A stretch of DNA of 64,000 bases from a virus: the IMG/VR virus record IMGVR_UViG_3300045902_000666, positions 1 to 64,000 of that record. One strand, 5' to 3'. The notes beneath the pieces were generated by a model. It was not told where the DNA came from. It saw only the letters and a program-made list of their open reading frames with translations, and ran no database searches. Shown piece by piece: positions 5,778 through 54,489 of this stretch; positions within the stretch are counted from its first letter, which is position 1, and the number at the start of each line of letters is the position of its first letter. Made by a program: the position numbers and the translations under genes.

Positions 5778-5781
5778 ATAT

Positions 5782-6049: not shown

Positions 6050-6139
6050 CGGGGGAGGTAGGACTCGAACCTACTTTATTTCAATATTTTCAGTCACTGC
6101 TTAACAGGCAGCCGCTAAAACCGCTTCAGCTACACCCCC
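6050..6139 (-). tRNA. tRNA-Asn(GTT) with long variable region
   Basis: CTGC-CTGTTAA-GCAG arm, ~22-nt variable region. Confidence 0.7.
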
Positions 6140-6142
6140 AAA

Positions 6143-6709
6143 TTATATTAGACCTCCATGTATTTCTCTATGACAATTTGCACAAACTAAAATACACTTA
6201 TCTAATTCTTTTTTTACCGCTTTCCAAGACCTACAATGTCCTTTTTGCGATAATGAAAAATCTTTTTTATTAGGGTCCAAATGATGAAATTCCATTGCGC
6301 CAACATATTTATTGTAACCGCATTTTTCACATTTTCCTCCCTTATATTCAATAGCAAGTTCTTTTATTTTTTTTCTCCTCTTTTGAACCGCCTGGACTGC
6401 TTTTGTCTTTCGGTCTGCCTCACTTAATTCTATCCTTTTTTTTCCTGCGTACTTTTTTACAGTAGAAAAGGATATGTTAAATTTAGAGGCCGTTTCTTCG
6501 AGAGAATGCTCTTTGTAATATATTGTAATTTCTTCTTTCATTTTGTCAGTTATATCAACTGTTTTTGATAAACCGATTTCTGTCAAATTGTTTTTTTGAC
6601 AATGATAAGAAATCACAGCAATACTACATTGCAATAAACTTGCTATCTCTTTATAAGATTTTCCTTTTAATCTTAATTTTACTATTTGATTTTTTAAACT
6701 CTCAGCCAT
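6143..6709 (-). CDS. HTH plus HNH homing endonuclease
   Basis: CEKCGY..MEFHH..CILVCANCHREIH. Confidence 0.85.
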   Translation of the reverse strand: MAESLKNQIVKLRLKGKSYKEIASLLQCSIAVISYHCQKNNLTEIGLSKTVDITDKMKEEITIYYKEHSLEETASKFNISFSTVKKYAGKKRIELSEADRKTKAVQAVQKRRKKIKELAIEYKGGKCEKCGYNKYVGAMEFHHLDPNKKDFSLSQKGHCRSWKAVKKELDKCILVCANCHREIHGGLI

Positions 6710-7245: not shown

Positions 7246-7282
7246 GAAAACAAGAAGGCCCGACTATTTCTAATCGGGCCTT
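7246..7282 (-). terminator. attenuator terminator of tRNA operon 1
   Basis: AAGGCCCGA/TCGGGCCTT stem then CTTGTTTTCT. Confidence 0.75.
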
Positions 7283-7321
7283 GGTATATCTTATTGGCTT
7301 ATTTAGTCTATTCTATGAGCC

Positions 7322-7426
7322 TCATGATTTGTTACCTACATACCCGAATTCCACAACGTGTTTATTAATATTCGTATTGAATATCGTTGTGTTTTTATTA
7401 ATGGTATGTTTTTTAGTTACAAACAT
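7322..7426 (-). CDS. leader peptide 1, MFVTKKHTINKNTTIFNTNINKHVVEFGYVGNKS
   Basis: Lies between promoter and terminator; 19 of codons 4-23 are T/K/H/I/N. Confidence 0.8.
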   Translation of the reverse strand: MFVTKKHTINKNTTIFNTNINKHVVEFGYVGNKS

Positions 7427-7450
7427 GATTTCTCTTTTTTTCTTTTATTC

Positions 7451-7510
7451 TAAATAGTTAAAAATTTTCTTTTTCGTGAACAATTGTACGCAAAGATATG
7501 AAAAAGGTTC
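7451..7510 (-). promoter_or_regulatory. promoter block of tRNA operon 1
   Basis: GAAC-N16-CGTACAA, TATCTTTG and CTATTTA; 7451-7494 matches 30953-30996 at 43 of 44 nt. Confidence 0.75.
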
Positions 7511-7580
7511 TGTTAAATGCAAGAAAAAAGTGAATTTTTTTTTATTTTCTTTATAAATCGCTGAAAATTAGAGTTTTATT

Positions 7581-9516: not shown

Positions 9517-12500
9517 ATGCGTGACCAAAGGACACTGGACTTCTTAAAAAAATTAAAAGATAATAATGTTTTAGATAATAATTATGATTATTCTAAAACT
9601 CTATATATTGATGCTACAACTAACATAACCATTTTTGATGAGAATGGTTTTGAGCATTCACAAAATCCAAGGGCACATCTTAAGGGATTTAAACTATCAA
9701 TATTATCTGCTGTTAATAAAACACAATATTTTATTGATAGGTTAAAACGAACAGGTAACTTCAATCCTAAGTACGATTACTCAAAATTAATTTACGTCAA
9801 TAGTGATACAAAGCTAATAATTATTGATGAAAATGGATTTGAACATGCTATGATACCTAATAGTGTAGTAAATGGAAATCAGTTAAACATTAGAAGTGTG
9901 GTTGATAAGGCTAATTTTTTTATTTTTAAATCTAAATTAATACATGGAGATAAGTATGATTATTCTAAGGTAAATTTTGTTGACACAACAACCAAAGTAA
10001 AAATTATATGTCCAGCACATGGTGAATTTGAACAAACACCAAATGGTCATATGTCTGGTCGTAATTGTAATAAGTGTGGCGATTTGATGATTGGTAAAAA
10101 ATTAAATCGAGGAAATGAGAAATTTATTAATGAAGCTAAAAAAATACATGGTGAAAAATATGATTATTCATTAGTCAAATACATTAATAACAATAAAAAA
10201 GTAATAATTATTGATGAAAATGGATTTAAACATAGCCAGCGACCTGCTGCTCACTTAGAAGGTAGAACTCTTTCAATACAATCTGCTATGAATAAAACAG
10301 AATACTTTGCTGCAAAGGCTAAGTTAGTTCATGGAGATAAATATGATTATTCATTGGTAAACTACATAAATAATAGTACGGAAATATCCATATTGTGTTC
10401 AAAACACAATGAATTTAAACAAACTCCAGCTGGTCACTTGACTGGTGCTGGCTGCCCAAAGTGTTCAGGACAAAATAAAAACACTTCCGATTTAATTAGT
10501 GAATTTTTGAAGATACACGGTAAAAAATACGATTATTCCTTAGTAGAATATATTAACAACAAAACAAAGGTCAAGATTATTTGTCCGACTCACGGTGAAT
10601 TTGAACAACTCCCAAGTAATCACAAAAAAGGTGTTAATTGTCCTAAGTGTACTGGCTCTTTTATGGATACCCAATATTTTATCGAGAAAGCTAATTTAGT
10701 TCATGATAATAAGTATAATTACTCACTGGTGGAATATTCTGGCAAAGAAGGTAAAGTAAAAATTATATGTCCAGAACATGGTATTTTTGAGCAAACAAGT
10801 GGTTCACATTTAAATGGTAGTGGTTGTCAAAAATGTGGAAAACAATTCATGGACACAGAATATTTTATTGAGAAAGCTAAATTAGTTCATGGAGATAAAT
10901 ATGATTATTCAGATGTTATATATGTCAGTGCGATTAAACCAGTTAAATTAAAATGTTTAGAAAATAATCATTTTTTTGAACAATCTCCAAACTCACATTT
11001 AAATGGTACTGGTTGTCCAAAATGTGTTGGGAGAAATAAGACTACCGAAGAATTTATTGAAGAGGCTAAACAGATACATGGGAATAAATATAACTATTCT
11101 TTAGTTGATTATTTGAACACTTCAGAAAACATTAGAATAATCTGTAATACACATGGTGAATTTTTACAAAAACCAGTCCATCATCTGAGAGGTCAGGGAT
11201 GTCCAGTTTGTGGAAATGGGTTTATAAAAAGCTTTAAAATTTCATTGATAAATTCACTTTCACAGAGTGATTTATTTTCTATGGACCCATTTGAAATTTA
11301 TACTATTATCGGTCAAGGTAAGCTTCCAATTGATTTTGGAGTACTTGCAAATTCGGATGCTGGTTCGGAAGAAAGATTAACAACACTTCAAGAATTAAAA
11401 GATAAATTTTCTACTGAAGATAATAATGAGAATGAGTGTATTGAGGAAGAAACTATAACATCTGAATGTGAAGAAATAAGTGTGGTAGATGATATTGATA
11501 CAGAGGTCACCAACACAAAAACACAAGAAGAAACAAAACCAGAACTGCCAAATGTGAATATTCTTGGCGACCTTCATTCATTAGATAATAGTATCTATGC
11601 TACAATGGATAAGGAGGCTCTTGAAAGTCTTATCCAGTACAAATTGCGTAAGCTATGGAATAATGTTTTGAATGATGATATTACGGTTGATGAGATTAAA
11701 TCTGACACTGGTGGCGAATACTTCACACAAATCAAGAATTTGTTTTTGGAAGAATATGAAGAAGTAATCGCATATAAACCTAAACCAGGTTACAAGTTTC
11801 AATACCAACCAAACTTAATGCAAAAGTTAACTGTTATCAGACTATTAAAAAACAAGTCATATGGTAACTGGTCTGGAACAGGTGCTGGTAAAACTCTTTC
11901 GTTTATTGTGGCCAGTCGAGAAATAGATTCAAAACTTACAGTTGTTATTGCATTAAATTCTACTATAGAGCAAACATGCAAAGCTATTAAAAGCGTATAT
12001 CCAAACAGCCAAGTTTTTACTGAATATACAAAAGGGTATGTCTTTGATAGAACCAAACATAATTATCTTGTTCTTAATTATGAGAAATTCCAACAAGAAT
12101 ATTCAGAAGAATTGTTCCAAGACTTAACGAATAACAATCAAATTGATTTTGTTGTTATTGATGAAGTACATAATGCAAAGCAAAGACAAGAAGATGATGA
12201 GTCTATCAGACGTGGGGTTTTAAATAGATTACTTGGTAGAATTCGAGCTAACAACAAGGATTTATATAGTCTTGTTATGTCTGCTACGCCTGTCGTTAAT
12301 AATCTATATGAAGCTAAGTCTTTATTGCAATTATTGACTGGCTTGGATTATAACGATATTGATACAAGAAGAACGCTGCCAAATGCATTAAAGGTGTTCC
12401 AACAACTTATTTTGAATGGCTTAAGATTTATTCCGAAGTATGATATAGAAATAAATGAGTTGACAGGCTCAAATATGAGCAATCTTAATATTGATGGCTC

Positions 12501-13782
12501 TCACTTGTTAGATGCGATACTTGATTTACCACAAGGCAACTATATAGCTATAGAAAAACTATTGCTTGAAGATAAGCTAAATGCAGTTAAACCATATCTC
12601 AAAAAGGGTGTCATCATTTACTCTTACTTAACGACAGGGTTCATTAAACCTATTGAGAAATTTGTTAAAAATGCTGGCTTTACTGTTGGAACATATACTG
12701 GTGAAGAAACATCATTTATCAGACAGGAAAATCTAAATAAATTCCTATCAGGTGATATTGATGTTTTAATTGGCTCCAGACCTATAGGAACAGGTGTAGA
12801 TGGATTACAATCAGTATGTGACAGGATGATACCAGTTACGTTGCCTTGGACCGACTCCGAATACACCCAATTAAAAGGTCGTATCTATCGTCAGGGTAGC
12901 TTGTTTGGAGCTGTTGAGATTGTTATCCCCCAGGTTCGTATTAATCTTGAAAATGATGAATTTTGGTCATGGGATATTCAACGTTTAAATGTAATTAAAA
13001 ACAAAAAGACGCTGGCAGATGCTGCTGTTGATGGTATTGTTCCATCAAGAGTATTACCACGTCCAGAAACAATGTTTAAAAAGTCTCAGGAATCACTTCA
13101 AAAGTGGAAGGATAGGGTTAACGCTGGTAATCTTGTAGAAGTAAAGAGAAACCCTCTTAATATTGATTTATATCCATCTATAAGCGATGAACAACAAAGA
13201 CAAGTCAGAATACAATCTGAGCTGTCAGAGTTCAATAGAAGAGGTAAGACGACACGTTCTGAGACCATGCATAAGGAATTCACAAAAAACCCTGAGAGCT
13301 GGTTTAGATACCATGCACTTAGAAAAGAACGCATGAGTGAGTGGGATGAGATACCTTATGAATATATCGCCACAAAAATAAAGAATAAGAACCGTAAGGT
13401 AGCTGATTTTGGATGTGGAGAAAATCTATTTAAAAACTGCATTCCAAATAATGAAGTAATATCCTTTGACCATGTAGCTATTGATAGCTCAGTGATAGCG
13501 TGTGACATGAAAGATGTGTCTAAGTGGTTAACTAATGAGAGTATAGATATAGCAGTTTTCAGTCTGGCTTTATGGGGGGTAAATTATAAGGATTATATTA
13601 AGGAAGCTTATAGAGTATTAAGCTATGATGGTAAAATCTATATAGCAGAACCAATAAAAGATTATCCAGATACTGAATCAGAGAAAGAGTTGATAAATCT
13701 TATAACTGAGGTTGGGTTTAAGATAGTTGGTGAAATCGAAAGAAGAGGTAGATTTATCTATATTACAGGAACAAAAGAATAA
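9517..13782 (+). CDS. Zn-ribbon repeat (DUF723/CapR-like) + SF2 helicase + class I SAM methyltransferase (RRP8-like) fusion
   Basis: About 9 HGxKYDYS repeats; GTGAGKT, DEVH, SATP, QLKGRIYR; C-terminal VADFGCGE. Confidence 0.85.
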   Translation: MRDQRTLDFLKKLKDNNVLDNNYDYSKTLYIDATTNITIFDENGFEHSQNPRAHLKGFKLSILSAVNKTQYFIDRLKRTGNFNPKYDYSKLIYVNSDTKLIIIDENGFEHAMIPNSVVNGNQLNIRSVVDKANFFIFKSKLIHGDKYDYSKVNFVDTTTKVKIICPAHGEFEQTPNGHMSGRNCNKCGDLMIGKKLNRGNEKFINEAKKIHGEKYDYSLVKYINNNKKVIIIDENGFKHSQRPAAHLEGRTLSIQSAMNKTEYFAAKAKLVHGDKYDYSLVNYINNSTEISILCSKHNEFKQTPAGHLTGAGCPKCSGQNKNTSDLISEFLKIHGKKYDYSLVEYINNKTKVKIICPTHGEFEQLPSNHKKGVNCPKCTGSFMDTQYFIEKANLVHDNKYNYSLVEYSGKEGKVKIICPEHGIFEQTSGSHLNGSGCQKCGKQFMDTEYFIEKAKLVHGDKYDYSDVIYVSAIKPVKLKCLENNHFFEQSPNSHLNGTGCPKCVGRNKTTEEFIEEAKQIHGNKYNYSLVDYLNTSENIRIICNTHGEFLQKPVHHLRGQGCPVCGNGFIKSFKISLINSLSQSDLFSMDPFEIYTIIGQGKLPIDFGVLANSDAGSEERLTTLQELKDKFSTEDNNENECIEEETITSECEEISVVDDIDTEVTNTKTQEETKPELPNVNILGDLHSLDNSIYATMDKEALESLIQYKLRKLWNNVLNDDITVDEIKSDTGGEYFTQIKNLFLEEYEEVIAYKPKPGYKFQYQPNLMQKLTVIRLLKNKSYGNWSGTGAGKTLSFIVASREIDSKLTVVIALNSTIEQTCKAIKSVYPNSQVFTEYTKGYVFDRTKHNYLVLNYEKFQQEYSEELFQDLTNNNQIDFVVIDEVHNAKQRQEDDESIRRGVLNRLLGRIRANNKDLYSLVMSATPVVNNLYEAKSLLQLLTGLDYNDIDTRRTLPNALKVFQQLILNGLRFIPKYDIEINELTGSNMSNLNIDGSHLLDAILDLPQGNYIAIEKLLLEDKLNAVKPYLKKGVIIYSYLTTGFIKPIEKFVKNAGFTVGTYTGEETSFIRQENLNKFLSGDIDVLIGSRPIGTGVDGLQSVCDRMIPVTLPWTDSEYTQLKGRIYRQGSLFGAVEIVIPQVRINLENDEFWSWDIQRLNVIKNKKTLADAAVDGIVPSRVLPRPETMFKKSQESLQKWKDRVNAGNLVEVKRNPLNIDLYPSISDEQQRQVRIQSELSEFNRRGKTTRSETMHKEFTKNPESWFRYHALRKERMSEWDEIPYEYIATKIKNKNRKVADFGCGENLFKNCIPNNEVISFDHVAIDSSVIACDMKDVSKWLTNESIDIAVFSLALWGVNYKDYIKEAYRVLSYDGKIYIAEPIKDYPDTESEKELINLITEVGFKIVGEIERRGRFIYITGTKE

Positions 13783-17789: not shown

Positions 17790-18595
17790 AGTAATAAGTC
17801 TGAGATTACAACTCATTATAACGGTCTTTGCTAAGATTATCCCTTTTGTGGTTCCTTAGGCTATCCACAATCCTTTCGGATTGTATCCGTCAGTCACGAT
17901 TACTTACGGTAATCAATCTTGTCGTCAAGCTTACTCTACAGCTACTTAACCTACACCTGTACGGCCATACCGATGCATGCCTTTCACGATAATCGTCATC
18001 TCTCTTGCGGAAAGACAACTCCCTAATTCGTATTGCTACGTTAGGGTCTGAGTGACCTTTCAGCTCCAACGCCCATAAGTCTTGGGCGATAATTAATTAA
18101 ATGTAATTGCCTAACATTTTTTTAAAATGTAAGATGTAATGATAATTGCAAAGAGAGACGTGCTTATGGGTGTCAGCTCAATTCCGTTGCCAGAACCAAA
18201 TACTGATACGCCCCTCTGTGAACTTTAGCATGTTCACCCTCAACCCCGATTACTTTTTTACTTGTCTGCTCTTCCGAACCTACAGAGGTCTTTAATAACC
18301 GAAAAAAGGCAAGTGACACAAAGCATTCAGTTTGCTAAACCTCACACTTTATATCTCGGATTTTCTTGTTGACCCATTTCTAAGCCTCAATCACCAGCTA
18401 TCACTACTGATGATGAATCGGAAGCCGTTCTGACGTTCCTATCATACTATCCTAATGTCTAGATGTCCTATTTGGTTTGCACCAACAAGGCGAAAGTTTG
18501 CACCTCCCTTTTATTCCCTATTACTAGAGTTTATCTTCTCTTGCGAGCTTGTCTGAACTTTCGTTCAAACGTGACCCTAAACAGCCACAAATATC
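17790..18595 (-). ncRNA. large structured ncRNA, GOLLD-like
   Basis: ~800 nt, no credible ORF, GC-richer, many GNRA-capped hairpins, own promoter, boxA-like motif and terminator, next to a tRNA. Confidence 0.65.
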
Positions 18596-18693
18596 TTAAC
18601 TCAAAGAACTTTCTAAAATTATGTTGCAAACATAATAACTTGCAAAATAAAAGTCAAGTTTTTTTTAAAAAAAATTGAAAAAAAATTTTTTGC

Positions 18694-18767
18694 CCGCCCC
18701 AGTAGGCCTCGAACCCACGACCCTCGGACCTAGGAGACCGATGCTCTACCAACTGAGCTATGGGGGG
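18694..18767 (-). tRNA. tRNA-like gene with enlarged anticodon loop (Arg-CCT?)
   Basis: Normal D and T arms; loop CTCCTAGG. Confidence 0.6.
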
Positions 18768-18772
18768 AATTG

Positions 18773-24546: not shown

Positions 24547-24582
24547 AAATATAAAGGCTCCATTTGGAGCCTTTTTTTATTG

Positions 24583-24666
24583 TAGCACTGGTCGGACTCG
24601 AACCGACAATACCGTGAGGAACCTGCTTATGAGGCAAGCACAATTACCACATCTGTTCACAGTGCT
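24583..24666 (-). tRNA. tRNA with CAT anticodon (Met) and long variable arm
   Basis: CTCATAA loop; AGCACTG/CAGTGCT acceptor. Confidence 0.75.
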
Positions 24667-24824
24667 ATGCAAGAACAGTTATTTATTCTTTCTGGTACTT
24701 ATTGAATGAATCAATAACCAAACTAAAAGAACAACTGGAATGGCTATACCTATTAAAACTTCTACATCCATAATTTATAAATCTACAAAAATTATTCCAC
24801 TATTAAAATTTACACTCCTTTTTG

Positions 24825-24897
24825 AGCGGAAGACGGGGCTCGAACCCGCCACCCTTAGCTTGGAAGGCTAATGCTCTACCAAATGAGCTACTTCCGC
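24825..24897 (-). tRNA. tRNA-Gly(TCC)
   Basis: Canonical, U73. Confidence 0.92.
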
Positions 24898-24925
24898 ATA
24901 AAGCAGAGATTTCTCTCTGCTATTT

Positions 24926-25270
24926 TTATTTTTTATCAGGGTATTTAGCATCCATTTCATCAATTACACTAAATGGAGACCCTCCGACACCTGAATAACG
25001 TATATCTTCAAATCCGTTTTCTTTTGTAATTAGAGAATCTCTTTCGTCAATAGCACCTCTATGCTTATCAAATCCTTTTTTATTCTCTATTTTACCTGTA
25101 GATGGATTATAACTTCCCCAATCTGCAGCCCTATCAGGACCTATTGGTTCAACGTAATACGTTTTCCCAGTTCTAATAGAATACACAATGAATCTACCTG
25201 TGTCATCACGACTTTCAAGAAACCTTTTCCTGAAGTCTCTAGTTTTTGTTACCCCTTTTTTCATAACCAT
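24926..25270 (-). CDS. hypothetical protein
   Basis: 114-aa ORF. Confidence 0.65.
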   Translation of the reverse strand: MVMKKGVTKTRDFRKRFLESRDDTGRFIVYSIRTGKTYYVEPIGPDRAADWGSYNPSTGKIENKKGFDKHRGAIDERDSLITKENGFEDIRYSGVGGSPFSVIDEMDAKYPDKK

Positions 25271-25294
25271 TTATTTATTTTGTTTTTCACCTCT

Positions 25295-25528
25295 TTAATA
25301 GCTGGGTGAATTTTGCTTTATTATTTTTAATATCTCTCTTCCATCTACAACTTCACATTTAGATTGTATTTCTTTCAATCTTTTTTTTGGTATATCATAA
25401 TGCTCTTTCCCTTTTTTATTATAGAACCAACATCTTTTTATACCTAAATCTTCTGCCATTTTATGTAAGTTCTCTATATTATAAGGAACACACACTAAAT
25501 GACGCTCATTGTCACAATAGTACTTCAT
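25295..25528 (-). CDS. DUF4031-like protein
   Basis: HL..LHKMAEDLGIKRCWF..HYDI. Confidence 0.65.
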   Translation of the reverse strand: MKYYCDNERHLVCVPYNIENLHKMAEDLGIKRCWFYNKKGKEHYDIPKKRLKEIQSKCEVVDGREILKIIKQNSPSY

Positions 25529-25533
25529 ATTTG

Positions 25534-25610
25534 AGTAAGTGATGGGGCTAGAACCCACGACCTTCTTAATGGCAATCAGATGCTCTAAGCCAAAACTGAG
25601 CTACACTTAC
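25534..25610 (-). tRNA. tRNA-Gly(GCC), somewhat degenerate
   Basis: TTGCCAT loop; T-loop TTCTAGC. Confidence 0.65.
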
Positions 25611-25663
25611 ATGAAGTGGATTGGGGTATTCATTCCCTTTTAGCCCACCCGCAGGGCATTTTG

Positions 25664-25738
25664 AGCAGAAGACGGGACTCAAACCCGCCTCTATTTCATC
25701 TTGGCAACGTTATGTACCACCAATTATGCGTTAACTGC
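25664..25738 (-). pseudogene. degenerate tRNA-Gly(GCC) overlapping the HNH stop codon
   Basis: T arm retained; acceptor and anticodon stems mismatched. Confidence 0.55.
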
Positions 25739-26230
25739 ATTTCTTTTTTCTCGTCTTTTTTGTCTACCATTCCCTTTATTAGCACCTCCCCATGTTTTAG
25801 TTAGAGAATGACAATTGGGGCATAAAAGTTTAAGATTTTTTATATCATTATTTTCTGAATTTCCATCTACATGTTCTATTTGAATTGGTATTTTTCCTGT
25901 AAATTTATTTACCTTATCCCATCCGCACTCCATGCATTTTTCCCCAAACTTAAAAATAAGATACCGTTTAAAAGTCTCTTCATGATAATTCAAGCATCCA
26001 GATTCTATTTTATAAAAAGTTTCCTTTTTTCTAAATTCACCTTGACATTTGTTACTACAATATTTACTGCTATTGCGTTTTAACTGTCCTCCACACTCAA
26101 TACATTCTCCATATTTTTTCTTTTCACGCTTAACATTATTGTATTTTGCTGCACAAGATGAATTACAAAATTTCTTTCCATATTGAATTTCTTCATTGCA
26201 ATTTTTACATTTTTTCGAATTATCAACCAT
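25724..26230 (-). CDS. HNH homing endonuclease
   Basis: IEHVDGN..N..NLKLLCPNCH. Confidence 0.9.
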   Translation of the reverse strand: MVDNSKKCKNCNEEIQYGKKFCNSSCAAKYNNVKREKKKYGECIECGGQLKRNSSKYCSNKCQGEFRKKETFYKIESGCLNYHEETFKRYLIFKFGEKCMECGWDKVNKFTGKIPIQIEHVDGNSENNDIKNLKLLCPNCHSLTKTWGGANKGNGRQKRREKRNAVNA

Positions 26231-26279
26231 TTTTTATTTTATAAATAGGTTGAAATTTCGAAATTCAAAGAACTAAATG

Positions 26280-26351
26280 AGCGGAGAAGGAGAATCGAAC
26301 TCCCGTTCAAACCTTGGCAAGGTCTTGTAATAGCCACTATACGACCTCCGC
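26280..26351 (-). tRNA. tRNA-Gly(GCC)
   Basis: Canonical, U73. Confidence 0.9.
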
Positions 26352-26356
26352 ATAAT

Positions 26357-26488
26357 AAAACAGGGTTAGGTGAGTAGTGTGTTTTTTGGTGATTTATCCG
26401 GGAGTTTAACCCAGACCTTTTTCTGGAAATGAAAATGCTCTTCACAGAGCTTATAAATCGAAGTAACACTATTTCTTGCCACTGTTTT
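26357..26488 (-). ncRNA. member of the Y-RNA-like family with degenerate T arm
   Basis: AAAACAGTGGCAAG..GTTACTTCG..AACCCTGTTTT. Confidence 0.55.
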
Positions 26489-26492
26489 TTTT

Positions 26493-26568
26493 AGCACTAG
26501 GTGAGATTCGAACTCACGGCAATTCCTGCTTGGAAGGCAGGCGCAATCGACCACTATGCGACTAATGC
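26493..26568 (-). tRNA. tRNA-Gly(TCC)
   Basis: CTTCCAA loop. Confidence 0.85.
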
Positions 26569-26574
26569 AAATAG

Positions 26575-26745
26575 AATGTAGGGATTTTTTTCGAAATGTA
26601 TTTTTTCTAAGCTGGGTTTAACCACTCCCCTACCTCCCCATTTGTAAATTTATAAATTGCGGGGAGGGCTGGATTCGAACCAACGTAGAGCCTAAGCTCG
26701 GCTGCTTTACATGCACGAAGTAACAATTCAAATTGCCACTACATT
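26575..26745 (-). ncRNA. Y-RNA-like RNA with permuted tRNA-Tyr-like domain
   Basis: Paired ends AATGTAG/CTACATT; GTA loop, variable arm, T arm, CCTCCCC-loop-GGGGAGG, then D arm. Confidence 0.65.
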
Positions 26746-26776
26746 ACTCAATACTTTCAAAGAACAACTTCTTCAG

Positions 26777-26870
26777 TGGAGACGAAGGGTATCAAACCCC
26801 TGGAGGACACAACCTTAGTTCCCTCACTGGTTTTCAAGACCAGCCACTTTAACCTAACTCGTGCATCTCC
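26777..26870 (-). tRNA. tRNA-Ser(TGA), degenerate T loop
   Basis: CTTGAAA loop, long variable arm. Confidence 0.65.
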
Positions 26871-26899
26871 AAATGCAGTTTATAGTTCTTCAACTTTTG

Positions 26900-26973
26900 T
26901 GGGAGTGGTCAGACTCAGGCGTAAGCCACTGGTTTTACAGACCAGCCCAACTCTCCAGCGTTGGCGCACTCCC
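26900..26973 (-). pseudogene. tRNA-Tyr(GTA) with deleted T arm
   Basis: 5' part nearly identical to 29655-29736; GTTCGA missing. Confidence 0.65.
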
Positions 26974-27063
26974 TTGATATGCGTTCACAACCAACTGCGC
27001 CACATACCGTTAAAGATTGTTTTTTATTTCATACTACGTTGGGACAATCACACCAACCTTGTC

Positions 27064-27142
27064 TGGAGAAGGGGATTCAAACCCCCAATGTCATAGACCA
27101 CAGATTTACAGTCTGCTAAGCAACTAATTGCTCAATACTCCC
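27064..27142 (-). tRNA. tRNA-Tyr(GTA), degenerate
   Basis: CTGTAAA loop; weak acceptor stem. Confidence 0.55.
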
Positions 27143-27196
27143 AATTTTACGAACTTTCTTTAGTTTTCAGTTTGCGGGTTCGTAATCCCATTTCTG

Positions 27197-27952
27197 CTAT
27201 TCATTATATTTTAATTTCCAGTTTTTAATTTTCTTTTTTAATTCATCAATTGTAATATCACTTCTTTTATATTTGCTCGAATTCTGCCTCTGCAGTATCA
27301 ATTTACAATTTGCTGGATGTGATATTAACTCTGGGTCTATATTGTTATCAAAACCATCTCTTATTGAATAAATATGGTCCCGACTTACTCCATCCAAATT
27401 ATTTCCCCTATTCACAGGTTTATACCAACCAAATTCCTCAATTAACTTAAAATTAAACTCATCTTCGTAATCTGATAAATTGAAAGAAAAAAGACAATCT
27501 CTTTTATATGCTTGAAATTCAGACATATTTTTTCTTTTAAATCCCCTTCTACAATCATCAGAACAAAATATTTTTCTACTCTTTTTTAAAAAATAAACAC
27601 CACAATTTTTACATTTTACATAAGTATCTTTTACAAGTTTTTCTCTTCTTTTTTTATTAGCCTCATTTTTAACCACATCAGACAATATTCTTGTTTTATT
27701 TGTGCTTTTAGCTTGACAGGAAGAATTACAAAACTTATTATTTCTTTTTTTATATGGTATTTCTTTACCACAATGTTTACAATAACGAGGGTTTTTCTGA
27801 TAATTATCTTTTTTAGATAATGCCTCCCCGTTTTTACTATAATCCCTGAGATATTTATTTACATAAATATTTCTACATGTCAAAGAACAATAGGTTCTGT
27901 TTTTTTCTACCAAAATATTACATTCAATATTTTTACATTTTTTATCACACAT
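27197..27952 (-). CDS. Zn-finger plus HNH-like homing endonuclease
   Basis: Three CxxC..FCxxxC units; SRDH..HPANC..N. Confidence 0.8.
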   Translation of the reverse strand: MCDKKCKNIECNILVEKNRTYCSLTCRNIYVNKYLRDYSKNGEALSKKDNYQKNPRYCKHCGKEIPYKKRNNKFCNSSCQAKSTNKTRILSDVVKNEANKKRREKLVKDTYVKCKNCGVYFLKKSRKIFCSDDCRRGFKRKNMSEFQAYKRDCLFSFNLSDYEDEFNFKLIEEFGWYKPVNRGNNLDGVSRDHIYSIRDGFDNNIDPELISHPANCKLILQRQNSSKYKRSDITIDELKKKIKNWKLKYNE

Positions 27953-28006
27953 ATTTTTATTTAAAAATATGTGGAAAATTTAAAAATCGAACTTAACGCA
28001 ATTTAG

Positions 28007-28082
28007 TGGAGGTGAGGAGATTCGAACTCCCATATGTCCCACGTTGCAAACGTGGCGCTTCAGCCAGTTGAGCCACACCCCC
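28007..28082 (-). tRNA. tRNA-Ala(TGC)
   Basis: TTTGCAA loop, G3:U70. Confidence 0.9.
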
Positions 28083-28229
28083 AAACAGAGGGAAGACTAA
28101 CCCTCTTTTTGTTTCCTGTGCACCAGAAACCTTAAGTCTTTTTGTGGAGAAATAGGGAGTTTAATCTTGGTCAGTCACTCCGTCAAGCTGTTACACAACA
28201 TTAACTGACTACTTAAATCCCCAATATAT

Positions 28230-28679
28230 TTAAACCCACATTCCACCAGAACCTAAAAACTCTGAATAATCATCGAGGTCATCTTTCTTGACCTCTTGGG
28301 TTTTATCTTTATTCAACATGTCAAAGTACTCTTGATTTCTTTTTCTCCTCTTCTTTTCAATTCTATTTCTAAAATCTCTCAAGAGAGGTTCTGGAATCTG
28401 GATGTTCATCGTTTGGAATTCATCTAATATTTCTTTTTCAGTAAATGTCCAGTCAACAATTCCTTCACTCCATTGGTCAACCCACAATCCCCAGCTTTTT
28501 TTACCAATCATAACACTGTTTAAAATATTAGAGTGTCTTGTTTTTGGTACTTCCCCATCTTTATATTGTCCGTTTTCTAACTTCCTAAAGCAAAATTTTC
28601 CTTCATCACCATTAACATCAAATTCTACTTTTGTCGGTGAGCCGCAGAATACTAATATTCCACATCTATTGCTCTTCAA
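28230..28679 (-). CDS. hypothetical protein, start uncertain
   Basis: 149-aa ORF with TTG start. Confidence 0.5.
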   Translation of the reverse strand: MKSNRCGILVFCGSPTKVEFDVNGDEGKFCFRKLENGQYKDGEVPKTRHSNILNSVMIGKKSWGLWVDQWSEGIVDWTFTEKEILDEFQTMNIQIPEPLLRDFRNRIEKKRRKRNQEYFDMLNKDKTQEVKKDDLDDYSEFLGSGGMWV

Positions 28680-29020
28680 AAAGAAATTGAATATTTTATT
28701 AAAATTATCAGAATACTTTTGAAGTTTTCTATCCTTCTTACTTCCGATTTCTTTTTTTCTTTCTTCAATCCTTTCGTTTCTTGTTAGATTCTGGCTCCCA
28801 AGCTTTTACCCCCTTGATTTTTCATGTTTTTAGTTTATTTTAAATTTAACAATTCTTTTTTAGAGTCTTGAATTTTTCTTTGATAATCTGAGACACTAAT
28901 CTCCTTCGTGTTAGAAGTTTTTTTAGTTAACTGTTCTCTTATTTCATTTTCTAAAAACTCAATTCTCTCTTGTAGTTTTTTTCTTTTTTTTTCAATTTTA
29001 CTCATTTCTTTTTTCTTTTG

Positions 29021-29094
29021 TCGGGGTGGCCAGACTCGAACTGACGATACTCTTGGTCCCGAACCAAGCGTATTGCCAACTTTCCCACACCCCA
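29021..29094 (-). tRNA. tRNA-Pro(CGG)
   Basis: TTCGGGA loop. Confidence 0.85.
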
Positions 29095-29103
29095 GTGGTT
29101 TTT

Positions 29104-29577
29104 TTATTTATTTTTATTCTTTCCAGAAAAATTATTAGTTTGAGAGTGACAGTTAGGACAAATAAATCTTAAATTTGGAATCCTATTATCATTAGGATTT
29201 CCATTTTTATGGTCTAATTGCAATTGTAACTTTTTACCATTCCAAATACCTTTATTACCACATTCTTCACACTTATAAACTAAAATTTTTTCATTAATTA
29301 ATCTAATTTTCAATCTGTGCCTGTTTGTATAAGTAGAATTTTCTACTAATATGTCTTTTAGTGGTATTTTAGTTGTTGCATTATTACTCCTTCTTTCTAA
29401 ATGAGAATAGTCAATTCCCTCTTTAATTATTCTATCTTTTACTTTTTTATGCATCGTACCACTATTAGTTCTAAAACCAAAATACATTAAAATATCTCTA
29501 ATACTATTTTTAGTTTTTACTATTTCTAGAAATTTCTCAATTTCTATCGTATCAATTATACTTTTTTTTCTTGCCAT
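29104..29577 (-). CDS. HNH homing endonuclease
   Basis: LQLDHKNG..DNR..NLRFICPNCH; probable start MARKK at 29577. Confidence 0.9.
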   Translation of the reverse strand: MARKKSIIDTIEIEKFLEIVKTKNSIRDILMYFGFRTNSGTMHKKVKDRIIKEGIDYSHLERRSNNATTKIPLKDILVENSTYTNRHRLKIRLINEKILVYKCEECGNKGIWNGKKLQLQLDHKNGNPNDNRIPNLRFICPNCHSQTNNFSGKNKNK

Positions 29578-29654
29578 AATTTTTTTATTATAAATATAAC
29601 AAAAATAAAAATGGCGGCAGAACACAAAACTATCGCTTTCAAAGAACTTTTTTG

Positions 29655-29736
29655 TGGGAGCCGAGGGATTCGAACCCTCTCAGCCTAAGCACTTGTTTTA
29701 CAGACAAGCTCAACTCTCCAACGTTGACGCACTCCC
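29655..29736 (-). tRNA. tRNA-Tyr(GTA)
   Basis: CTGTAAA loop, variable arm. Confidence 0.85.
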
Positions 29737-29743
29737 AATATTG

Positions 29744-29827
29744 TGAAGTAGGTAAGAATCGAACTTACAAGGCCCGATGGCAACAGTTTTACAGACTGTC
29801 TCGCTTCCACTTACGGTCTACTACTTC
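29744..29827 (-). tRNA. tRNA-Tyr(GTA)
   Basis: CTGTAAA loop, variable arm. Confidence 0.8.
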
Positions 29828-29832
29828 ATTTG

Positions 29833-29909
29833 CGGTCTATATCGGATTCGAACCGACCTGTTTGTACTGCGTGACAGGCAGACGGCCACCCCAAGCAGCC
29901 CCATAGACC
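29833..29909 (-). tRNA. tRNA-Asp(GTC)
   Basis: CTGTCAC loop, G73. Confidence 0.85.
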
Positions 29910-29970
29910 ATTTATTCAAAGAACTTTTTCTGGCGGTGATGAAGGGACTCGAACCCTCCCATTCCGCTTG

Positions 29971-30044
29971 CGGTGCATACGGGACTCGAACCCGTGAACT
30001 CTACCGTGACAGGGTAGCATGATAACCAGCTTCACCAATGCACC
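29971..30044 (-). tRNA. tRNA-Asp(GTC)
   Basis: Canonical, G73. Confidence 0.92.
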
Positions 30045-30069
30045 ATTTATTTTTTTACTTATATTTTTG

Positions 30070-30145
30070 TCTGGTAAACAGGATTTGAACCTGCGCCTTC
30101 CTGCTTCCAATGCAGGCTGGGAAACCCTGACTCCCACACTACCAG
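30070..30145 (-). tRNA. tRNA-Pro(TGG), atypical
   Basis: CCTGC-ATTGGAA-GCAGG arm. Confidence 0.65.
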
Positions 30146-30216
30146 ATATTGTTGCAGATTTTATAACAGTGGAACAAAAGCTCTCTGAGCTATCATAAAA
30201 CACTGCAACTTCATTG

Positions 30217-30292
30217 TCGGGAAGACGGGACTCGAACCCGCATCAAGCTCCTCATCCCAAATGAGGCGAGGCACCAATTCCTCCACTTCCCG
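30217..30292 (-). tRNA. tRNA-Pro(TGG)
   Basis: TTTGGGA loop, C1:G72, A73. Confidence 0.9.
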
Positions 30293-30314
30293 AAAACTGA
30301 CACTTCAAACTTTA

Positions 30315-30400
30315 CCCAGATGATGGGGCTCGAACCCACGACCCTCGGCCTACCTACGCAAATGCTTTTACCGATGCTCTCCCGACTGAGCTACACCCAG
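30315..30400 (-). ncRNA. tRNA-like RNA with a ~20-nt expanded anticodon loop
   Basis: Normal D and T arms; no 7-nt anticodon loop. Confidence 0.55.
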
Positions 30401-30600
30401 AGTTATCCATGTCTTACTCAAATAACTACTCCCTCTTTTTACTTAGTTGTTTTTACTTACAATCTATTTTACCAAACCTGTCCAGACCCTTCCTCTGGCT
30501 CTTGGTTTTTTTAGCCTTTGCGTGTGTTATTTGATAAACATCAAAAGCTTTCATTACAACCTTTCATTAGAGCGCTTTCGCTACTCTTTCAAAATCACTG

Positions 30601-30731
30601 CTGGGGGCCCAAGACTCGAACTTGGACTACGGCTTTATGATTGCGAAGTAACTCTTTTACATCGCCACTGTTTGCCAGGGATAATTTGCCTAGAGTATGT
30701 TTTACGTGTGCTACCCTTACACTAACCCCCA
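30601..30731 (-). ncRNA. Y-RNA-like RNA in the opposite permutation (ends at the tRNA acceptor stem)
   Basis: tRNA 5' half, TTATCCCTG-GCAAA-CAGTGGCGATG..GTTACTTCG, tRNA 3' half. Confidence 0.65.
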
Positions 30732-30743
30732 ATATCAAAGAAC

Positions 30744-30774
30744 AAAAAAACCCGCTTCTTTTGGAAGCGGGTTT
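30744..30774 (-). terminator. attenuator terminator of tRNA operon 2
   Basis: AACCCGCTTC-CAAAA-GAAGCGGGTTTTTTT. Confidence 0.85.
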
Positions 30775-30804
30775 AACCTTTTTATCTAACCTTAAAACTT
30801 GACG

Positions 30805-30933
30805 TTATAATTTGGTCATGAAAATAGTTAATGAACCCGCTCCCTTGCTATAATCAGGGGCATAACCCATCCCTGCATCCCCCATCGCTGGAGCTGCTAC
30901 AGTATAAACCGGGTATGTCATTACTTTTTTCAT
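30805..30933 (-). CDS. leader peptide 2, MKKVMTYPVYTVAAPAMGDAGMGYAPDYSKGAGSLTIFMTKL
   Basis: 21 of codons 13-34 are A/P/M/G/D/Y/S; contains GGGAGCGGGTT antiterminator. Confidence 0.85.
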   Translation of the reverse strand: MKKVMTYPVYTVAAPAMGDAGMGYAPDYSKGAGSLTIFMTKL

Positions 30934-30952
30934 TGAATTTACTTTTTTATTT

Positions 30953-31025
30953 TAAATAGTTACAAATTTTCTTTTTCGTGAACAATTGTACGCAAATGTA
31001 CTGCAAAAGTTCTATAAAAGTCAAG
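30953..31025 (-). promoter_or_regulatory. promoter block of tRNA operon 2
   Basis: TTGAC..GAAC-N16-CGTACAA, TACATTTG, CTATTTA. Confidence 0.75.
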
Positions 31026-31066
31026 TTTTTTTTTATTTTTTTTTTAAAAAGCTGATTTTCAGCTCA

Positions 31067-31255
31067 TTATTTTTTTACAGCAGTTGTATCGCAACAAGCT
31101 TTTGTAGTATCACATGCTGTACTATCTGCTTTTACACAAACAGAATCAATCATACATACTGTACTATCCACTGTAGTAGTTTGCTCTTCTACAGATGAAC
31201 CTGTACAAGAAACTAAGGAAATAAGAATGGCCGAAGCTAAGATAATTTTTTTCAT
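31067..31255 (-). CDS. small lipoprotein
   Basis: Signal peptide with LVSC lipobox. Confidence 0.7.
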   Translation of the reverse strand: MKKIILASAILISLVSCTGSSVEEQTTTVDSTVCMIDSVCVKADSTACDTTKACCDTTAVKK

Positions 31256-31316
31256 TGTTTTTGGTTTTTATTCTGTTACCAATATATATAGTTGCTCATT
31301 GTATAGAAATTTATTC

Positions 31317-32585
31317 CTATGCAACAAGTTTATAAGCGTTTTGACTTTTGACTTCTGGTTTCCCTGAAATCGGAATCGTAAATCTTACTGGGCGAACTAC
31401 AACGCCCTCTATTCCATCGGCAAAAGCGTTTGGAATTACTTTTCTGATAATGTTGCCACTACCATTGCAGTCAGCATTGATTAGAATTTTTTTATTGCTT
31501 CGGAATAAACCTCTTTTTATTCTTCTGCCAGCATATTTTTCCTTATGCCTTATTTCTTCATTATCAAGGAAACTGCATTTGCTGGTATGGTTTTCTTCCT
31601 TTGCAATAACTTTCATTCCAATCAAATCACCTTTGTATTGCAGCATTTCAATAAATCTGGCAAATGGAATAGAAACAAAATTCTGATTGCTCTGCGCTCC
31701 CATATTTACCTCTTGCTTCCAATTTTTGTTCTTTCCAATGATAAGAGTTCCTATTCCATAATCTGAAAGACGATTGATAATGAACCTGCTTGCCTTGTGC
31801 AAATAGTCATCTATCTTCATATTGCGCTTAAAAGTCAGTCGTTCAATCTGATTGCTTGTTCTTCTGTTCTCATCTTCTTTCATCAGTTCACTCATCAGTT
31901 CTGCCTTTCGTTTATTGAAATACTGGTTGATACTCTTTAATGGTCTGCCGTTAATCAAAAGTGGTGTCCACTTATTATGATTTGATGTTACAGCCCCAAG
32001 ATTATCAACTCCTATATCAATTCCTGCCACTAAATTCTTGTTCAACTTTCTGTTTTTCCTTCTTTGTTCATAGACAACTTCTATTTTGTATTTTTTATTT
32101 TTAAGAGGAATAATTCTTGCTTGATTGATTTTATTGTGCAGAATTTTTATTTTAATATCAGTTCCAGAAAGATGTAAAATAAATTCTTCAAGTTCTGGCT
32201 TTGAAATTGCCTGAATAGTATAGATAAGAATGTTTCTCCCTGCTGTTTTGTGTTTGTATCTGGGTAGTTTAGGACGACCTTTGAATTTATCAGGATTTGC
32301 TTTCCATTCTTTTATTGACTTAAAAAATGATTTCCAATTCCTGTCAAGTTGCATCAAAACCTGCTGGCTTACCTTTCTTGGCAATGCTTCATAATCTACA
32401 TCTTTTGAGTTCTGCAGTTGTTTTTGTAAATCATTATAACGAATCCATTTTTTGTTTTTAATAAATTCTTGACGAATAATATAATTGGCTCTGTTGTAGA
32501 GATTCTTTGAAAGAAAACAAATCTTATCAATTTCTTTATAGAAATCAGAGTTATTGCTGATAATATGTTTTTCAACTAATTTCAT
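31317..32585 (-). CDS. tnpB: TnpB RNA-guided nuclease (IS607-like, tnpA lost)
   Basis: GIDIG, EENHTSKCS, INADCNG. Confidence 0.9.
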   Translation of the reverse strand: MKLVEKHIISNNSDFYKEIDKICFLSKNLYNRANYIIRQEFIKNKKWIRYNDLQKQLQNSKDVDYEALPRKVSQQVLMQLDRNWKSFFKSIKEWKANPDKFKGRPKLPRYKHKTAGRNILIYTIQAISKPELEEFILHLSGTDIKIKILHNKINQARIIPLKNKKYKIEVVYEQRRKNRKLNKNLVAGIDIGVDNLGAVTSNHNKWTPLLINGRPLKSINQYFNKRKAELMSELMKEDENRRTSNQIERLTFKRNMKIDDYLHKASRFIINRLSDYGIGTLIIGKNKNWKQEVNMGAQSNQNFVSIPFARFIEMLQYKGDLIGMKVIAKEENHTSKCSFLDNEEIRHKEKYAGRRIKRGLFRSNKKILINADCNGSGNIIRKVIPNAFADGIEGVVVRPVRFTIPISGKPEVKSQNAYKLVA

Positions 32586-32698
32586 TTTTTGCTTTCTAAT
32601 TGTTCTGTAATATTTTTCTATTTACAACTATCAATATCTATTAAATAGTTCAAATATTAAGATACCTAAATTTCAGAAATGTAACCCAAGTTTAAAAA

Positions 32699-51678: not shown

Positions 51679-52884
51679 TTAAACATTATCCACTTCAAAA
51701 AGACCAATTTTTTTCATACCAACATACAAATCAGACATTAACTTGAAAAACATTACTTTGTTTTCTTCATTGCCAGATATATGATGTGTTGTATACAAAG
51801 AATTAATCTCTTTACATAATTCAACCAAAGCTTGAAATAAAACACTTGGGTTTAGAGCTGCTTTAGCTTTAATATAAGCGTACTTAATCTCTGGCTTGAT
51901 AAAATCATCAGCCGAATGGTTTAAATCAACTCCAGCACTTTTTAAACGAGCCATAGTATAACTTAAATATAATCCGGGAGAATTTTTATGATTCTTCATC
52001 AAACTCATATCAAAAGTCTTATCTGACTTTGGCGAGCCTCCCAAAATATATCCTGCAAAAATGTTATAGGCTAATTTTTCATCACCATTAAACTCTTCTT
52101 TTAATTCTTCCATAAAATCTGAAAGATAAACAACATTACGAAGACGTGTAGACATTTTACCATTTGCAGATGGAATCATTTTATTTGACTTCAATTTAAC
52201 AAGCCCCAATCCTACATGTGTTATATGAGGATAAACTTTATTTAAAAGTTTAAAATGATTCTCTTGTTCATATCCAGTCAAATAAAGAGTATCATCATTT
52301 AAAAGAGATGCCAATGCTAAATCCTGATAAAAATAAGAAGTAGAACCATCTTTTTTTATTACAACAATTTTTTCTTCTCCAGCCTCAACTATTTTTGTTC
52401 CTTCATATTCTCCTTCTCCATCTTTCAATTCACCTCCATATTTCATTTCGGAAGCAAAGAAAATTTTATCTACTTTATAGTCAAAATTTTTACAGTGTTC
52501 TTTGAATTTTTCCAAAGCTTCTTCTTTAGAAACATCACCAGTTAATGTATCTCCAAGCATAGAAACATATTCTTCAGCGACTCCAAGTTTCTGAAATGCT
52601 TTAGCTAAAATTAAATTTGAAAAGTGGCCAATATGTAAATGTTTATTAAGATTTGGGCTGAACCCATCCATGTATTTGAACTTTTTTTCCCCTATAAACA
52701 TTTTACCAAAATCTGTTTTTTCAGTAGGGAAAAAATTGGTGTATCCTTTTTCTTTTTGAATTATAAAATTGCAAGACTCTGCTAGGTTTAAAACTTCTTG
52801 TGTTGGTTCGCCAAATACACAAAACCCAAATCCTTTATTAAGATTAGAAGGTATTACTTTAAATAAACTCGAATCTGTTGACAT
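51679..52884 (-). CDS. argS: compact arginyl-tRNA synthetase-like protein
   Basis: SPNLNKHLHIGH, KKDGS..Y..QDLA, EQENHF, KMSTR, YLSYTMARLKS; true start MSTDSS after the tRNA-like gene. Confidence 0.8.
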   Translation of the reverse strand: MSTDSSLFKVIPSNLNKGFGFCVFGEPTQEVLNLAESCNFIIQKEKGYTNFFPTEKTDFGKMFIGEKKFKYMDGFSPNLNKHLHIGHFSNLILAKAFQKLGVAEEYVSMLGDTLTGDVSKEEALEKFKEHCKNFDYKVDKIFFASEMKYGGELKDGEGEYEGTKIVEAGEEKIVVIKKDGSTSYFYQDLALASLLNDDTLYLTGYEQENHFKLLNKVYPHITHVGLGLVKLKSNKMIPSANGKMSTRLRNVVYLSDFMEELKEEFNGDEKLAYNIFAGYILGGSPKSDKTFDMSLMKNHKNSPGLYLSYTMARLKSAGVDLNHSADDFIKPEIKYAYIKAKAALNPSVLFQALVELCKEINSLYTTHHISGNEENKVMFFKLMSDLYVGMKKIGLFEVDNV

Positions 52885-52899
52885 TGTTTTTGTTTTTTG

Positions 52900-52990
52900 T
52901 ACAGGAGGAGGGATTCGAACCCCCATTGGCATTGCTGCTTCAACTCCAGTTACGGATAAAAGTTTAGAAAACTTCCTCGGTTACACCTGC
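52900..52990 (-). tRNA. non-canonical tRNA-like RNA, TCT anticodon, no D arm, long variable region
   Basis: Same architecture as 2742-2823. Confidence 0.65.
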
Positions 52991-54255: not shown

Positions 54256-54288
54256 AAAAAACCCCAGCTCTTTTGCAGAACCAGGGTT
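54256..54288 (-). terminator. attenuator terminator of tRNA operon 3
   Basis: AACCCTGGTTCT/AGAGCTGGGGTT stem then T tract. Confidence 0.75.
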
Positions 54289-54321
54289 ATACTGTTTTAA
54301 CTTAAATATCTTTTAGAAAAG

Positions 54322-54411
54322 TTACGACAATATAGATGCTGGTCCGCTAGTTCTTTTTGAACTCGAACTTGAACTTCTCCAAGACCATCTATATGTTGTT
54401 GTTACTTTCAT
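54322..54411 (-). CDS. leader peptide 3, MKVTTTYRWSWRSSSSSSKRTSGPASILS
   Basis: 12 of codons 8-20 are R/W/S. Confidence 0.85.
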   Translation of the reverse strand: MKVTTTYRWSWRSSSSSSKRTSGPASILS

Positions 54412-54418
54412 GTTTTTA

Positions 54419-54489
54419 TAAATATCAAAAATTTTCTTTTTTCTTGAGATTGTACGCAAAGATAATAAAAAAGTTCTACAAAAGTCAAG
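54419..54489 (-). promoter_or_regulatory. promoter block of tRNA operon 3
   Basis: TTGAC..GAAC-N16-CGTACAA, TATCTTTG, TATTTATA; homologous to blocks 1 and 2. Confidence 0.75.

Follow-up and report, generated by a model that had tools for sequence, protein, structure and literature searches.

The locus lies on the minus strand of IMG/VR record IMGVR_UViG_3300045902_000666, a viral sequence of 101.7 kb with 32% G+C, at least 40 tRNA genes and a GOLLD RNA, and all positions refer to its first 64,000 nt, the stretch analysed here (the window). The ArgRS-like protein of this phage is related to hundreds of others, encoded on contigs as long as 678 kb, and the record is therefore a piece of a huge phage or a relative of one. 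Along the minus strand we found, in this order, a Bacteroidota-type promoter, a UTR free of AUG, a short leader ORF, a 30-nt spacer, an intrinsic terminator and, 16 nt beyond the terminator, the first gene of a tRNA array (Table 1).

Table 1. Features of the focal locus, its orthologues and its sister modules (window positions; orthologues in the coordinates of their own contigs)
Feature	Position	Strand	Basis or remark
Promoter, Bacteroidota-type	31024..30993	-	consensus match; block repeated in the genome
-33-like element, TTGACT	31024..31019	-	sequence
-7 box TACATTTG (TAnnTTTG), Bacteroidota-type	31000..30993	-	sequence
5' UTR, 55 nt, A-rich, without AUG	30934..30988	-	no ATG in sequence
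Conserved UTR motif AAAAGAAAATTTGTAACTATTTA	30975..30953	-	common to other tRNA-array leaders
Leader ORF, 42 codons and TAA	30933..30805	-	reads MKKVMTYPVYTVAAPAMGDAGMGYAPDYSKGAGSLTIFMTKL; its AUG is the first of the transcript
Segment 1 (putative protector), 5' part of ORF including AUG	30907..30933	-	pairs with segment 2 in the predicted ribosome-free fold
Sensor codons 13-29, AAPAMGDAGMGYAPDYS	30847..30897	-	17/17 have amino-acid-matched tRNAs in the array
Segment 2 (putative antiterminator 5' strand)	30815..30844	-	predicted duplex with terminator 5' arm
Segment 2 core GGGAGCGGGTT, codons 30-34	30844..30834	-	helix continues to 30815
Intrinsic terminator, 11-bp perfect stem (segments 3 and 4), CAAAA loop	30748..30774	-	hairpin -16.6 kcal/mol
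Terminator 5' arm AAACCCGCTTC	30774..30764	-	sequence
Terminator 3' arm GAAGCGGGTTT	30758..30748	-	sequence
U-tract TTTTGTTCT	30739..30747	-	seven consecutive T, counting the final Ts of the stem
tRNA array, ~6 kb	24582..30731	-	tRNA calls (ARAGORN, Rfam); HNH endonuclease ORFs interspersed
tRNA-Glu(UUC)	26387-26459	-	ARAGORN; Rfam 44.8 bits; leader without Glu codon
Array-closing terminator	24553..24574	-	ends the transcription unit of the array
Sister module (putative attenuator), T/K/H/I/N leader	7246-7523	-	promoter-block copy 7436-7523
Sister module (putative attenuator), R/W/S leader	54256-54489	-	promoter-block copy 54402-54489
Orthologue L045 (IMG/VR 3300047678_000272), leader MKQVITYSINMPAMPKGAAGMGYAPADYSGVASMLTLFGS	7305-7427		frame kept
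Orthologue L056 (Ga0307378_10089349), leader	450-569		frame kept

Transcription from the promoter would start near 30988. The promoter belongs to an 88-nt block (family D7) present in four copies in the window, each preceding a tRNA cluster; it matches the copy at 7462-7493 exactly over 32 nt, and the consensus TAnnTTTGCGTAyAA occurs seven times in the genome. No match to the promoter consensus of this phage was found between the terminator and the end of the array. Searches of IMG/VR with exact promoter patterns returned chance or uninformative matches only (L001, L002), and blastn of the focal module against the phage collection gave no match. In contigs from other studies that cover the module at ~95-97% identity, the best-supported substitutions, among those listed, fell outside 30672-31064, which we do not count towards constraint on the module. 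Immediately upstream of the promoter, 31067-31255 (minus strand) holds a 62-aa ORF with a lipoprotein-type signal (LISLVSC) and a Cys-/Thr-rich tail, followed by a small hairpin. Further on, a 422-aa TnpB/transposase-like ORF (31317..32585, phrog_506) forms an insertion spanning 31288-32661 of the window; in contigs of ~95-97% identity from estuary, sludge and hot-spring runs, 31287 is joined straight to 32662, with 1374 nt skipped. Within the UTR, the 23-nt motif (general form AAAAGAAAAnTTnTAACTATTTA) also lies 12-19 nt ahead of the leader ATG in L056, L061, L063, L064, L084 and L089, which are otherwise unrelated metagenome contigs carrying leaders of tRNA arrays, while the 35 metagenome matches to the motif were mostly chance (human-gut and other contigs). 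The motif may be a ribosome-loading or pause element.

The leader ORF has a strongly biased composition. Its codons 13-34 read AAPAMGDAGMGYAPDYSKGAGS, and 21 of these 22 belong to the set {A,P,M,G,D,Y,S}, a count in which codons 31-33 (GGA GCG GGT) are scored as matches though pairing fixes them. Those seven amino acids make up 32.6% of the phage proteome (binomial P(>=21/22) = 9e-10), and the focal leader is the sole window to reach 21/22 among the ~203,000 windows that the whole 101.7-kb genome yields in six frames. The initial annotation had assigned these codons to exactly the seven tRNA identities of the array behind them; the 21 of 22 stand, but "exactly" does not, since the array also encodes tRNA-Glu(UUC), for which the leader has no codon. 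The codon usage described there can be read directly from the sequence, with all four Ala codons (GCA, GCT, GCG and GCC), three Pro codons (CCG, CCA and CCT) and three Gly codons (GGG, GGT and GGA), and the GC-rich sensor codons do stand out, at 59% G+C vs 32% in the window. The leader also carries Thr, Val, Lys, Leu, Ile and Phe codons, and its Ser codon 29 (AGC) has no reader in the array, whose single Ser tRNA is UGA.

The array opens with a tRNA-like RNA followed by an Ala or Thr tRNA, continues with Pro(UGG) x2, Asp x2, Tyr x2, Pro(CGG), Ala(UGC) and a weak Tyr, and ends with Ser(UGA), Gly(UCC), Glu(UUC), Gly(GCC) x2, Gly(UCC) and Met(CAU). Both genes nearest the terminator, at 30731..30600 and 30401..30314, are atypical and tRNA-like, and their identity is uncertain; for the former, the ARAGORN call of a tRNA-Ala(CGC) with a 54-nt intron was not accepted as an identity. 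This RNA (30600-30731, minus strand) has acceptor, D and T arms, with a 54-nt insert containing TGGCAA, ATCCC and TACTTCG in place of the normal anticodon arm, and a homologous tRNA-like gene also follows the terminator in L045 and L056. A Ro60/TROVE protein is encoded elsewhere in the genome, outside the window, and the RNA may accordingly be Y-RNA-like or a tRNA chimera. HNH and GIY-YIG homing-endonuclease-like ORFs lie among array tRNA genes (24926-29625 and 4998-6709, both minus strand), and several array tRNAs are unusually long (85-95 nt) or were found only under intron-tolerant settings.

Between the sensor codons and the array, the RNA can adopt mutually exclusive structures. The decamer GGAGCGGGTT, proposed in the initial annotation as a near copy of the terminator 3' strand able to sequester the 5' strand, is located at 30843..30834 and pairs with the terminator 5' arm; the duplex of segment 2 with that arm reaches -16.5 kcal/mol (z -4.2 vs shuffles), and among the arms of 27 modules described below the focal leader's own ranks 1 of 27. 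In the predicted ribosome-free RNA (MFE -56.5 kcal/mol), codons 1-9 are paired with codons 30-39 and the terminator is intact, with a terminator probability of 0.94. Once segment 1 is blocked, the predicted energies are -29.9 for the antiterminator fold vs -24.7 kcal/mol for the best terminator-containing fold. When a ribosome footprint was placed along the ORF, the modelled terminator probability was at most 0.1 with the ribosome at codons 10-12 and 21-25, 0.36-0.57 at codons 13-15, 19-20 and 26, 0.74-0.90 at codons 16-18, where poor antitermination is predicted, and at least 0.87 from codon 27 onward. These footprint and folding figures describe thermodynamic equilibrium, and the actual decision is kinetic. 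In the same equilibrium model, the sister module with its leader at 54411 is dominated by the terminator whatever the ribosome position, and this, together with the poor antitermination at codons 16-18 of the focal leader, means that kinetics must be invoked.

Two orthologues of the focal leader were found, in L045 and L056. Their arrays, homologous to the focal one, contain Pro, Asp, Tyr, Ala, Gly and Met tRNAs, with a first gene that ARAGORN likewise calls Ala(CGC) with an intron, and their predicted folds show the same three states as the focal leader, the protector layout included. In the three-way alignment, indels inside the ORF measure 3, 3 and 6 nt, while those outside it measure 1, 4, 4, 1, 2, 1 and 1 nt. 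Segment 2, the terminator 5' arm and the 3' arm change together from AGCGGGT, ACCCGCT and AGCGGGT to AGCGAGT, ACTCGCT and AGCGAGT, so that a G:C to A:U substitution is accompanied by compensating changes in both of the competing helices, a single event in a set of three sequences. The leader peptide is partly conserved in the two orthologues (AGMGYAP and DYS), and a search with a degenerate AGMGYAP pattern returned only three unrelated GC-rich matches (L051, L052 and L054).

The genome itself contains two sister modules behind copies of the promoter block. The leader at 7425 reads MFVTKKHTINKNTTIFNTNINKHVVEFGYVGNKS, with the control run TKKHTINKNTTIFNTNINKH followed by a terminator, and stands ahead of tRNAs for Asn x2, His x2, Thr x3-4, Lys x4, Ile x2 and Met. 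The leader at 54411 reads MKVTTTYRWSWRSSSSSSKRTSGPASILS, with the control run RWSWRSSSSSSKRTS and again a terminator, and is followed by tRNAs for Ser, Trp x2, Ser x2 and Arg, the ArgRS-like gene (51679..52932) and a further Arg tRNA. Both sister sensor windows are unique or nearly so in the genome. A 142-aa ORF behind the third leader had no relative in IMG/VR.

We assembled relatives from 42 IMG/VR loci obtained by alignment of the ArgRS-like protein, pieces of two records and metagenome contigs sharing the UTR motif, and applied fixed criteria to them: a T-tailed terminator hairpin at least as stable as -12 kcal/mol, a longest ATG ORF of 12-60 codons whose end lies 10-45 nt ahead of the hairpin, and a tRNA within 1.2 kb. 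This pipeline yielded 27 distinct modules from this genome and from related and distant huge phages, and the rule that leader composition follows the tRNAs downstream was seen in all of them. Examples are QTQKQQPKGGKPYG ahead of Gln, Lys, Pro, Gly, Tyr and Thr tRNAs, NLNNTMTTVVNITL ahead of Leu, Asn, Thr, Val, Ile and Met tRNAs, NHIHKHQIWH ahead of Trp, His and His tRNAs, and ITRIIRIRRR ahead of two Ile and three Arg tRNAs. Single-amino-acid versions also occur inside or before arrays of relatives (L046 3936-4016, L047 3899-3970, L035 18910-18966), with seven Gln codons ahead of four tRNA-Gln genes, five Lys codons ahead of five tRNA-Lys genes and six Gln codons ahead of five tRNA-Gln genes. 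Leader residues matched the module's own array at a mean of 0.438, compared with 0.235 ± 0.021 after permutation (z 9.6; 0/50,000), and one module per leader family gave z 8.5 (n = 19). The claim that leader composition tracks downstream tRNA identity thus extends from the focal locus to its two sisters and 24 further modules (permutation z 8.5-9.6). Pairing is also module-specific, the duplex of a leader with its own terminator arm averaging -11.98 vs -8.49 ± 0.41 for crossed combinations (z -8.4; 0/50,000), with weak antiterminator duplexes (above -10 kcal/mol) in 7 of the 27 modules. Among clusters of at least three tRNAs with enough upstream sequence (n = 23), the strict pipeline placed a module directly upstream in 14 and after a lone first tRNA in a further 3, and found none in 6.

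The matched codons are also constrained in position. At a distance of 5-12 codons ahead of segment 2 they make up 74-85% of codons; within or after it their share is 17-26%, the background level (across modules, 0.61 upstream vs 0.22 in or after segment 2; Fisher P = 2e-21). Such a spacing would follow from a need for the stalled ribosome to keep its footprint just short of segment 2. Across modules the stop codon lies 17-36 nt before the terminator, mostly 20-25 nt, and a terminating ribosome would therefore sit between segments 2 and 3. Composition, position and frame bear together on the possibility that a phage factor, either a lambda Q/N-like protein or a put-like RNA, acts on the initial transcribed region to overcome a promoter-proximal stop, the ORF being incidental. 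The 88-nt block at the four tRNA-cluster promoters includes transcribed sequence, and the 23-nt UTR motif is conserved across phages, so either could be a factor-loading site; we nevertheless consider such a factor very unlikely to be the explanation, because it accounts neither for leaders that follow the tRNA set in 27 modules, nor for the fixed distance between the matched codons and the copy of the terminator 3' arm within the ORF, nor for indels that keep the frame. Highly improbable, too, is that the ORF is the gene of a small functional peptide and has a terminator of its own, the array being reached by leaky read-through or from an unrecognised promoter. The partial conservation of the peptide in the two orthologues speaks for this; against it, only 16 nt separate the terminator from the first gene of an array that lacks a consensus promoter, the non-homologous leaders of other modules obey the same composition rule, and the C-terminal third of the leaders is free in composition and constrained in pairing.

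At the level of codons, 296 of 306 matched codons are wobble-readable by an anticodon of the module's own array. The codon boxes of six-fold amino acids gave 39 of 45 readable in a small sample, and CGN Arg codons are confined to modules with an ACG or UCG tRNA-Arg (again a small sample), which makes the codon-box test suggestive. This agreement between codons and array anticodons would also be expected if the anticodons read the codon row directly and stabilised the antiterminator in the manner of a T-box, independently of translation. We regard that as extremely improbable, given that the codons occupy a single frame running from the first AUG to a stop, that indels keep this frame, that the spacing between sensor codons and segment 2 suits a ribosome footprint, and that no T-box or other riboswitch match was obtained, with no Rfam match to the T-box fold at the gathering threshold or at E <= 1.

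Together, these data make it very probable that the focal element is a ribosome-mediated leader-peptide attenuator that is multivalent and senses decoding by the very tRNAs under its control. The basis for this reading is sequence anatomy, energetics, covariation and comparative statistics. The anatomy put forward in the initial annotation, comprising promoter, AUG-initiated leader, protector, antiterminator and terminator, appears complete in the sequence and in the folding models, where it performs better than controls. Translation of the ORF and stalling of the ribosome are inferred, as are the way in which the switch acts and the decisive role of tRNA supply as opposed to that of amino acids. 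In the proposed mechanism, the promoter near 31000 would fire and the leader AUG at 30933 would be translated at once. When Ala, Pro, Gly, Asp, Tyr, Ser and Met tRNAs are plentiful, the ribosome would pass segment 2 and reach the TAA, and while it is parked there, between segment 2 and the terminator, the 11-bp hairpin would form and transcription would stop 16 nt short of the first gene. Should any of the sampled tRNAs, host- or phage-supplied, be scarce, the ribosome would stall within codons ~10-26 and keep segment 1 from segment 2, leaving GGGAGCGGGTT free to pair with the emerging terminator 5' arm; with the antiterminator formed, no terminator would arise and polymerase would enter the array encoding those same tRNAs. 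An RNA that is not translated would terminate by default through pairing of segments 1 and 2. As the tRNA products of the array would relieve the stall, the loop would operate as a negative-feedback gauge of tRNA supply, and the genome would hold at least three such gauges, each for another amino-acid group. The depletion that sets off a gauge could plausibly stem from a mismatch between the host tRNA pool and phage codon usage, from host shut-off or from tRNA-cleaving defences.

A stalled ribosome cannot tell a missing tRNA from an uncharged one, and the his and thr leaders have an identical anatomy, both of which would suit a classical sensor of amino-acid starvation through which the phage merely couples tRNA synthesis to nutrient state. 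However, extra tRNA cannot relieve starvation, which would leave the match between leader codons and the tRNAs of the operon without purpose, and the leaders sample several isoacceptor codons (four for Ala here, TCN and AGY for Ser in a sister module); on these grounds a pure starvation sensor seems extremely unlikely. None of the rival explanations accounts for leader-array covariation, the positional rule and frame conservation together.

Returning to attenuation by the leader peptide, its nearest mechanistic counterparts are the multivalent enterobacterial attenuators, of which the ilvGMEDA leader is specific for Ile/Leu/Val and the thr leader for Thr/Ile. The focal element resembles them in its short multi-amino-acid leader ORF, its exclusive 1:2, 2:3 and 3:4 helices, the intrinsic terminator before the first structural gene and the read-through that would follow a stall at control codons. 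It differs in having tRNAs rather than biosynthetic enzymes as targets, in covering seven amino acids and in being phage-borne and of Bacteroidota type; its stop codon, moreover, lies between segments 2 and 3, whereas that of enterobacterial leaders lies before segment 2, so that its layout departs slightly from that of trp. Rfam leader families (Thr_leader RF00506, Phe_leader and others) gave no score at the gathering threshold, the best match being Thr_leader at 23.2 bits vs a cut-off of 55 (E 0.57), confined to the terminator part. The single-amino-acid form known from hisL, pheL, trpL and leuL is also present in the phage relatives (Q7, K5), where the output is the tRNA itself. In E. coli, the pheM leader attenuator controls pheST, the genes for phenylalanyl-tRNA synthetase. 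In that case leader-peptide attenuation likewise acts on a gene of the translation apparatus, and the unit behind the sister leader at 54411 includes the ArgRS-like gene; pheM differs in being monovalent and in governing a synthetase, not tRNA genes. T-boxes share with the proposed switch the sensing of tRNA state by codon-anticodon recognition and a choice between terminator and antiterminator, but they bind uncharged tRNA without a ribosome and have a conserved fold. To our knowledge, the leader-peptide attenuators described so far all control amino-acid biosynthesis or synthetase genes, unlike the focal unit, which is a tRNA array, and a search of the full-text literature for leader-peptide control of tRNA genes found no account of it. 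The closest published case is the trn operon (L-array) of Anabaena, which is induced under translational stress (PMC8421152) and controlled by promoter repeats and the TrcR repressor (PMC10272220). This accessory tRNA array stays silent until translation is impaired, as the focal array would; leader, attenuator and terminator are mentioned in neither PMC8421152 nor PMC10272220.

On a broader view, the division of the tRNA repertoire into operons with codon-matched attenuators could constitute a distributed, codon-by-codon gauge of decoding that tops up scarce tRNAs and is widespread in several huge-phage lineages, a reading that we put forward tentatively and hold to be somewhat less than evenly probable. 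Part of it is that such gauges would provide an automatic counter-measure to tRNA depletion by host defences (anticodon nucleases and others) or by shut-off. The regulation of phage tRNA genes, and the reason why huge phages carry dozens of tRNAs, are largely open questions. If the attenuator reading is true, these would be the first tRNA genes described under ribosome-mediated attenuation, with tRNA supply, not amino-acid supply, as the sensed quantity; it would account for operons in which phage tRNAs are grouped by amino acid, and would tie phage tRNAs to codon usage and to host tRNA-targeting defences in a directly testable way. The leaders could in addition aid annotation by predicting the identity of odd tRNA-like genes behind them, and could serve as compact, programmable sensors of decoding capacity.

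Other features were noted elsewhere in the window. At 58020-58964 (minus strand), the remaining one of the four promoter-block copies drives ATG AAG TAG followed by an in-frame PTH2-like (peptidyl-tRNA hydrolase) ORF; this unit was found to have no terminator-type attenuator, and downstream of the ORF lie a tRNA-Cys and a tRNA with a CUA anticodon (amber suppressor). A 1421-aa ORF at 9517-13782 (plus strand) contains six tandem repeats of ~186 nt that match HNH-endonuclease-associated PHROGs and is fused to a helicase-like region. The GOLLD RNA (17797-18216, minus strand; Rfam 187.9 bits) adjoins a tRNA-like gene at 18692-18768 on the same strand, for which ARAGORN reports a four-base anticodon (CCUA).
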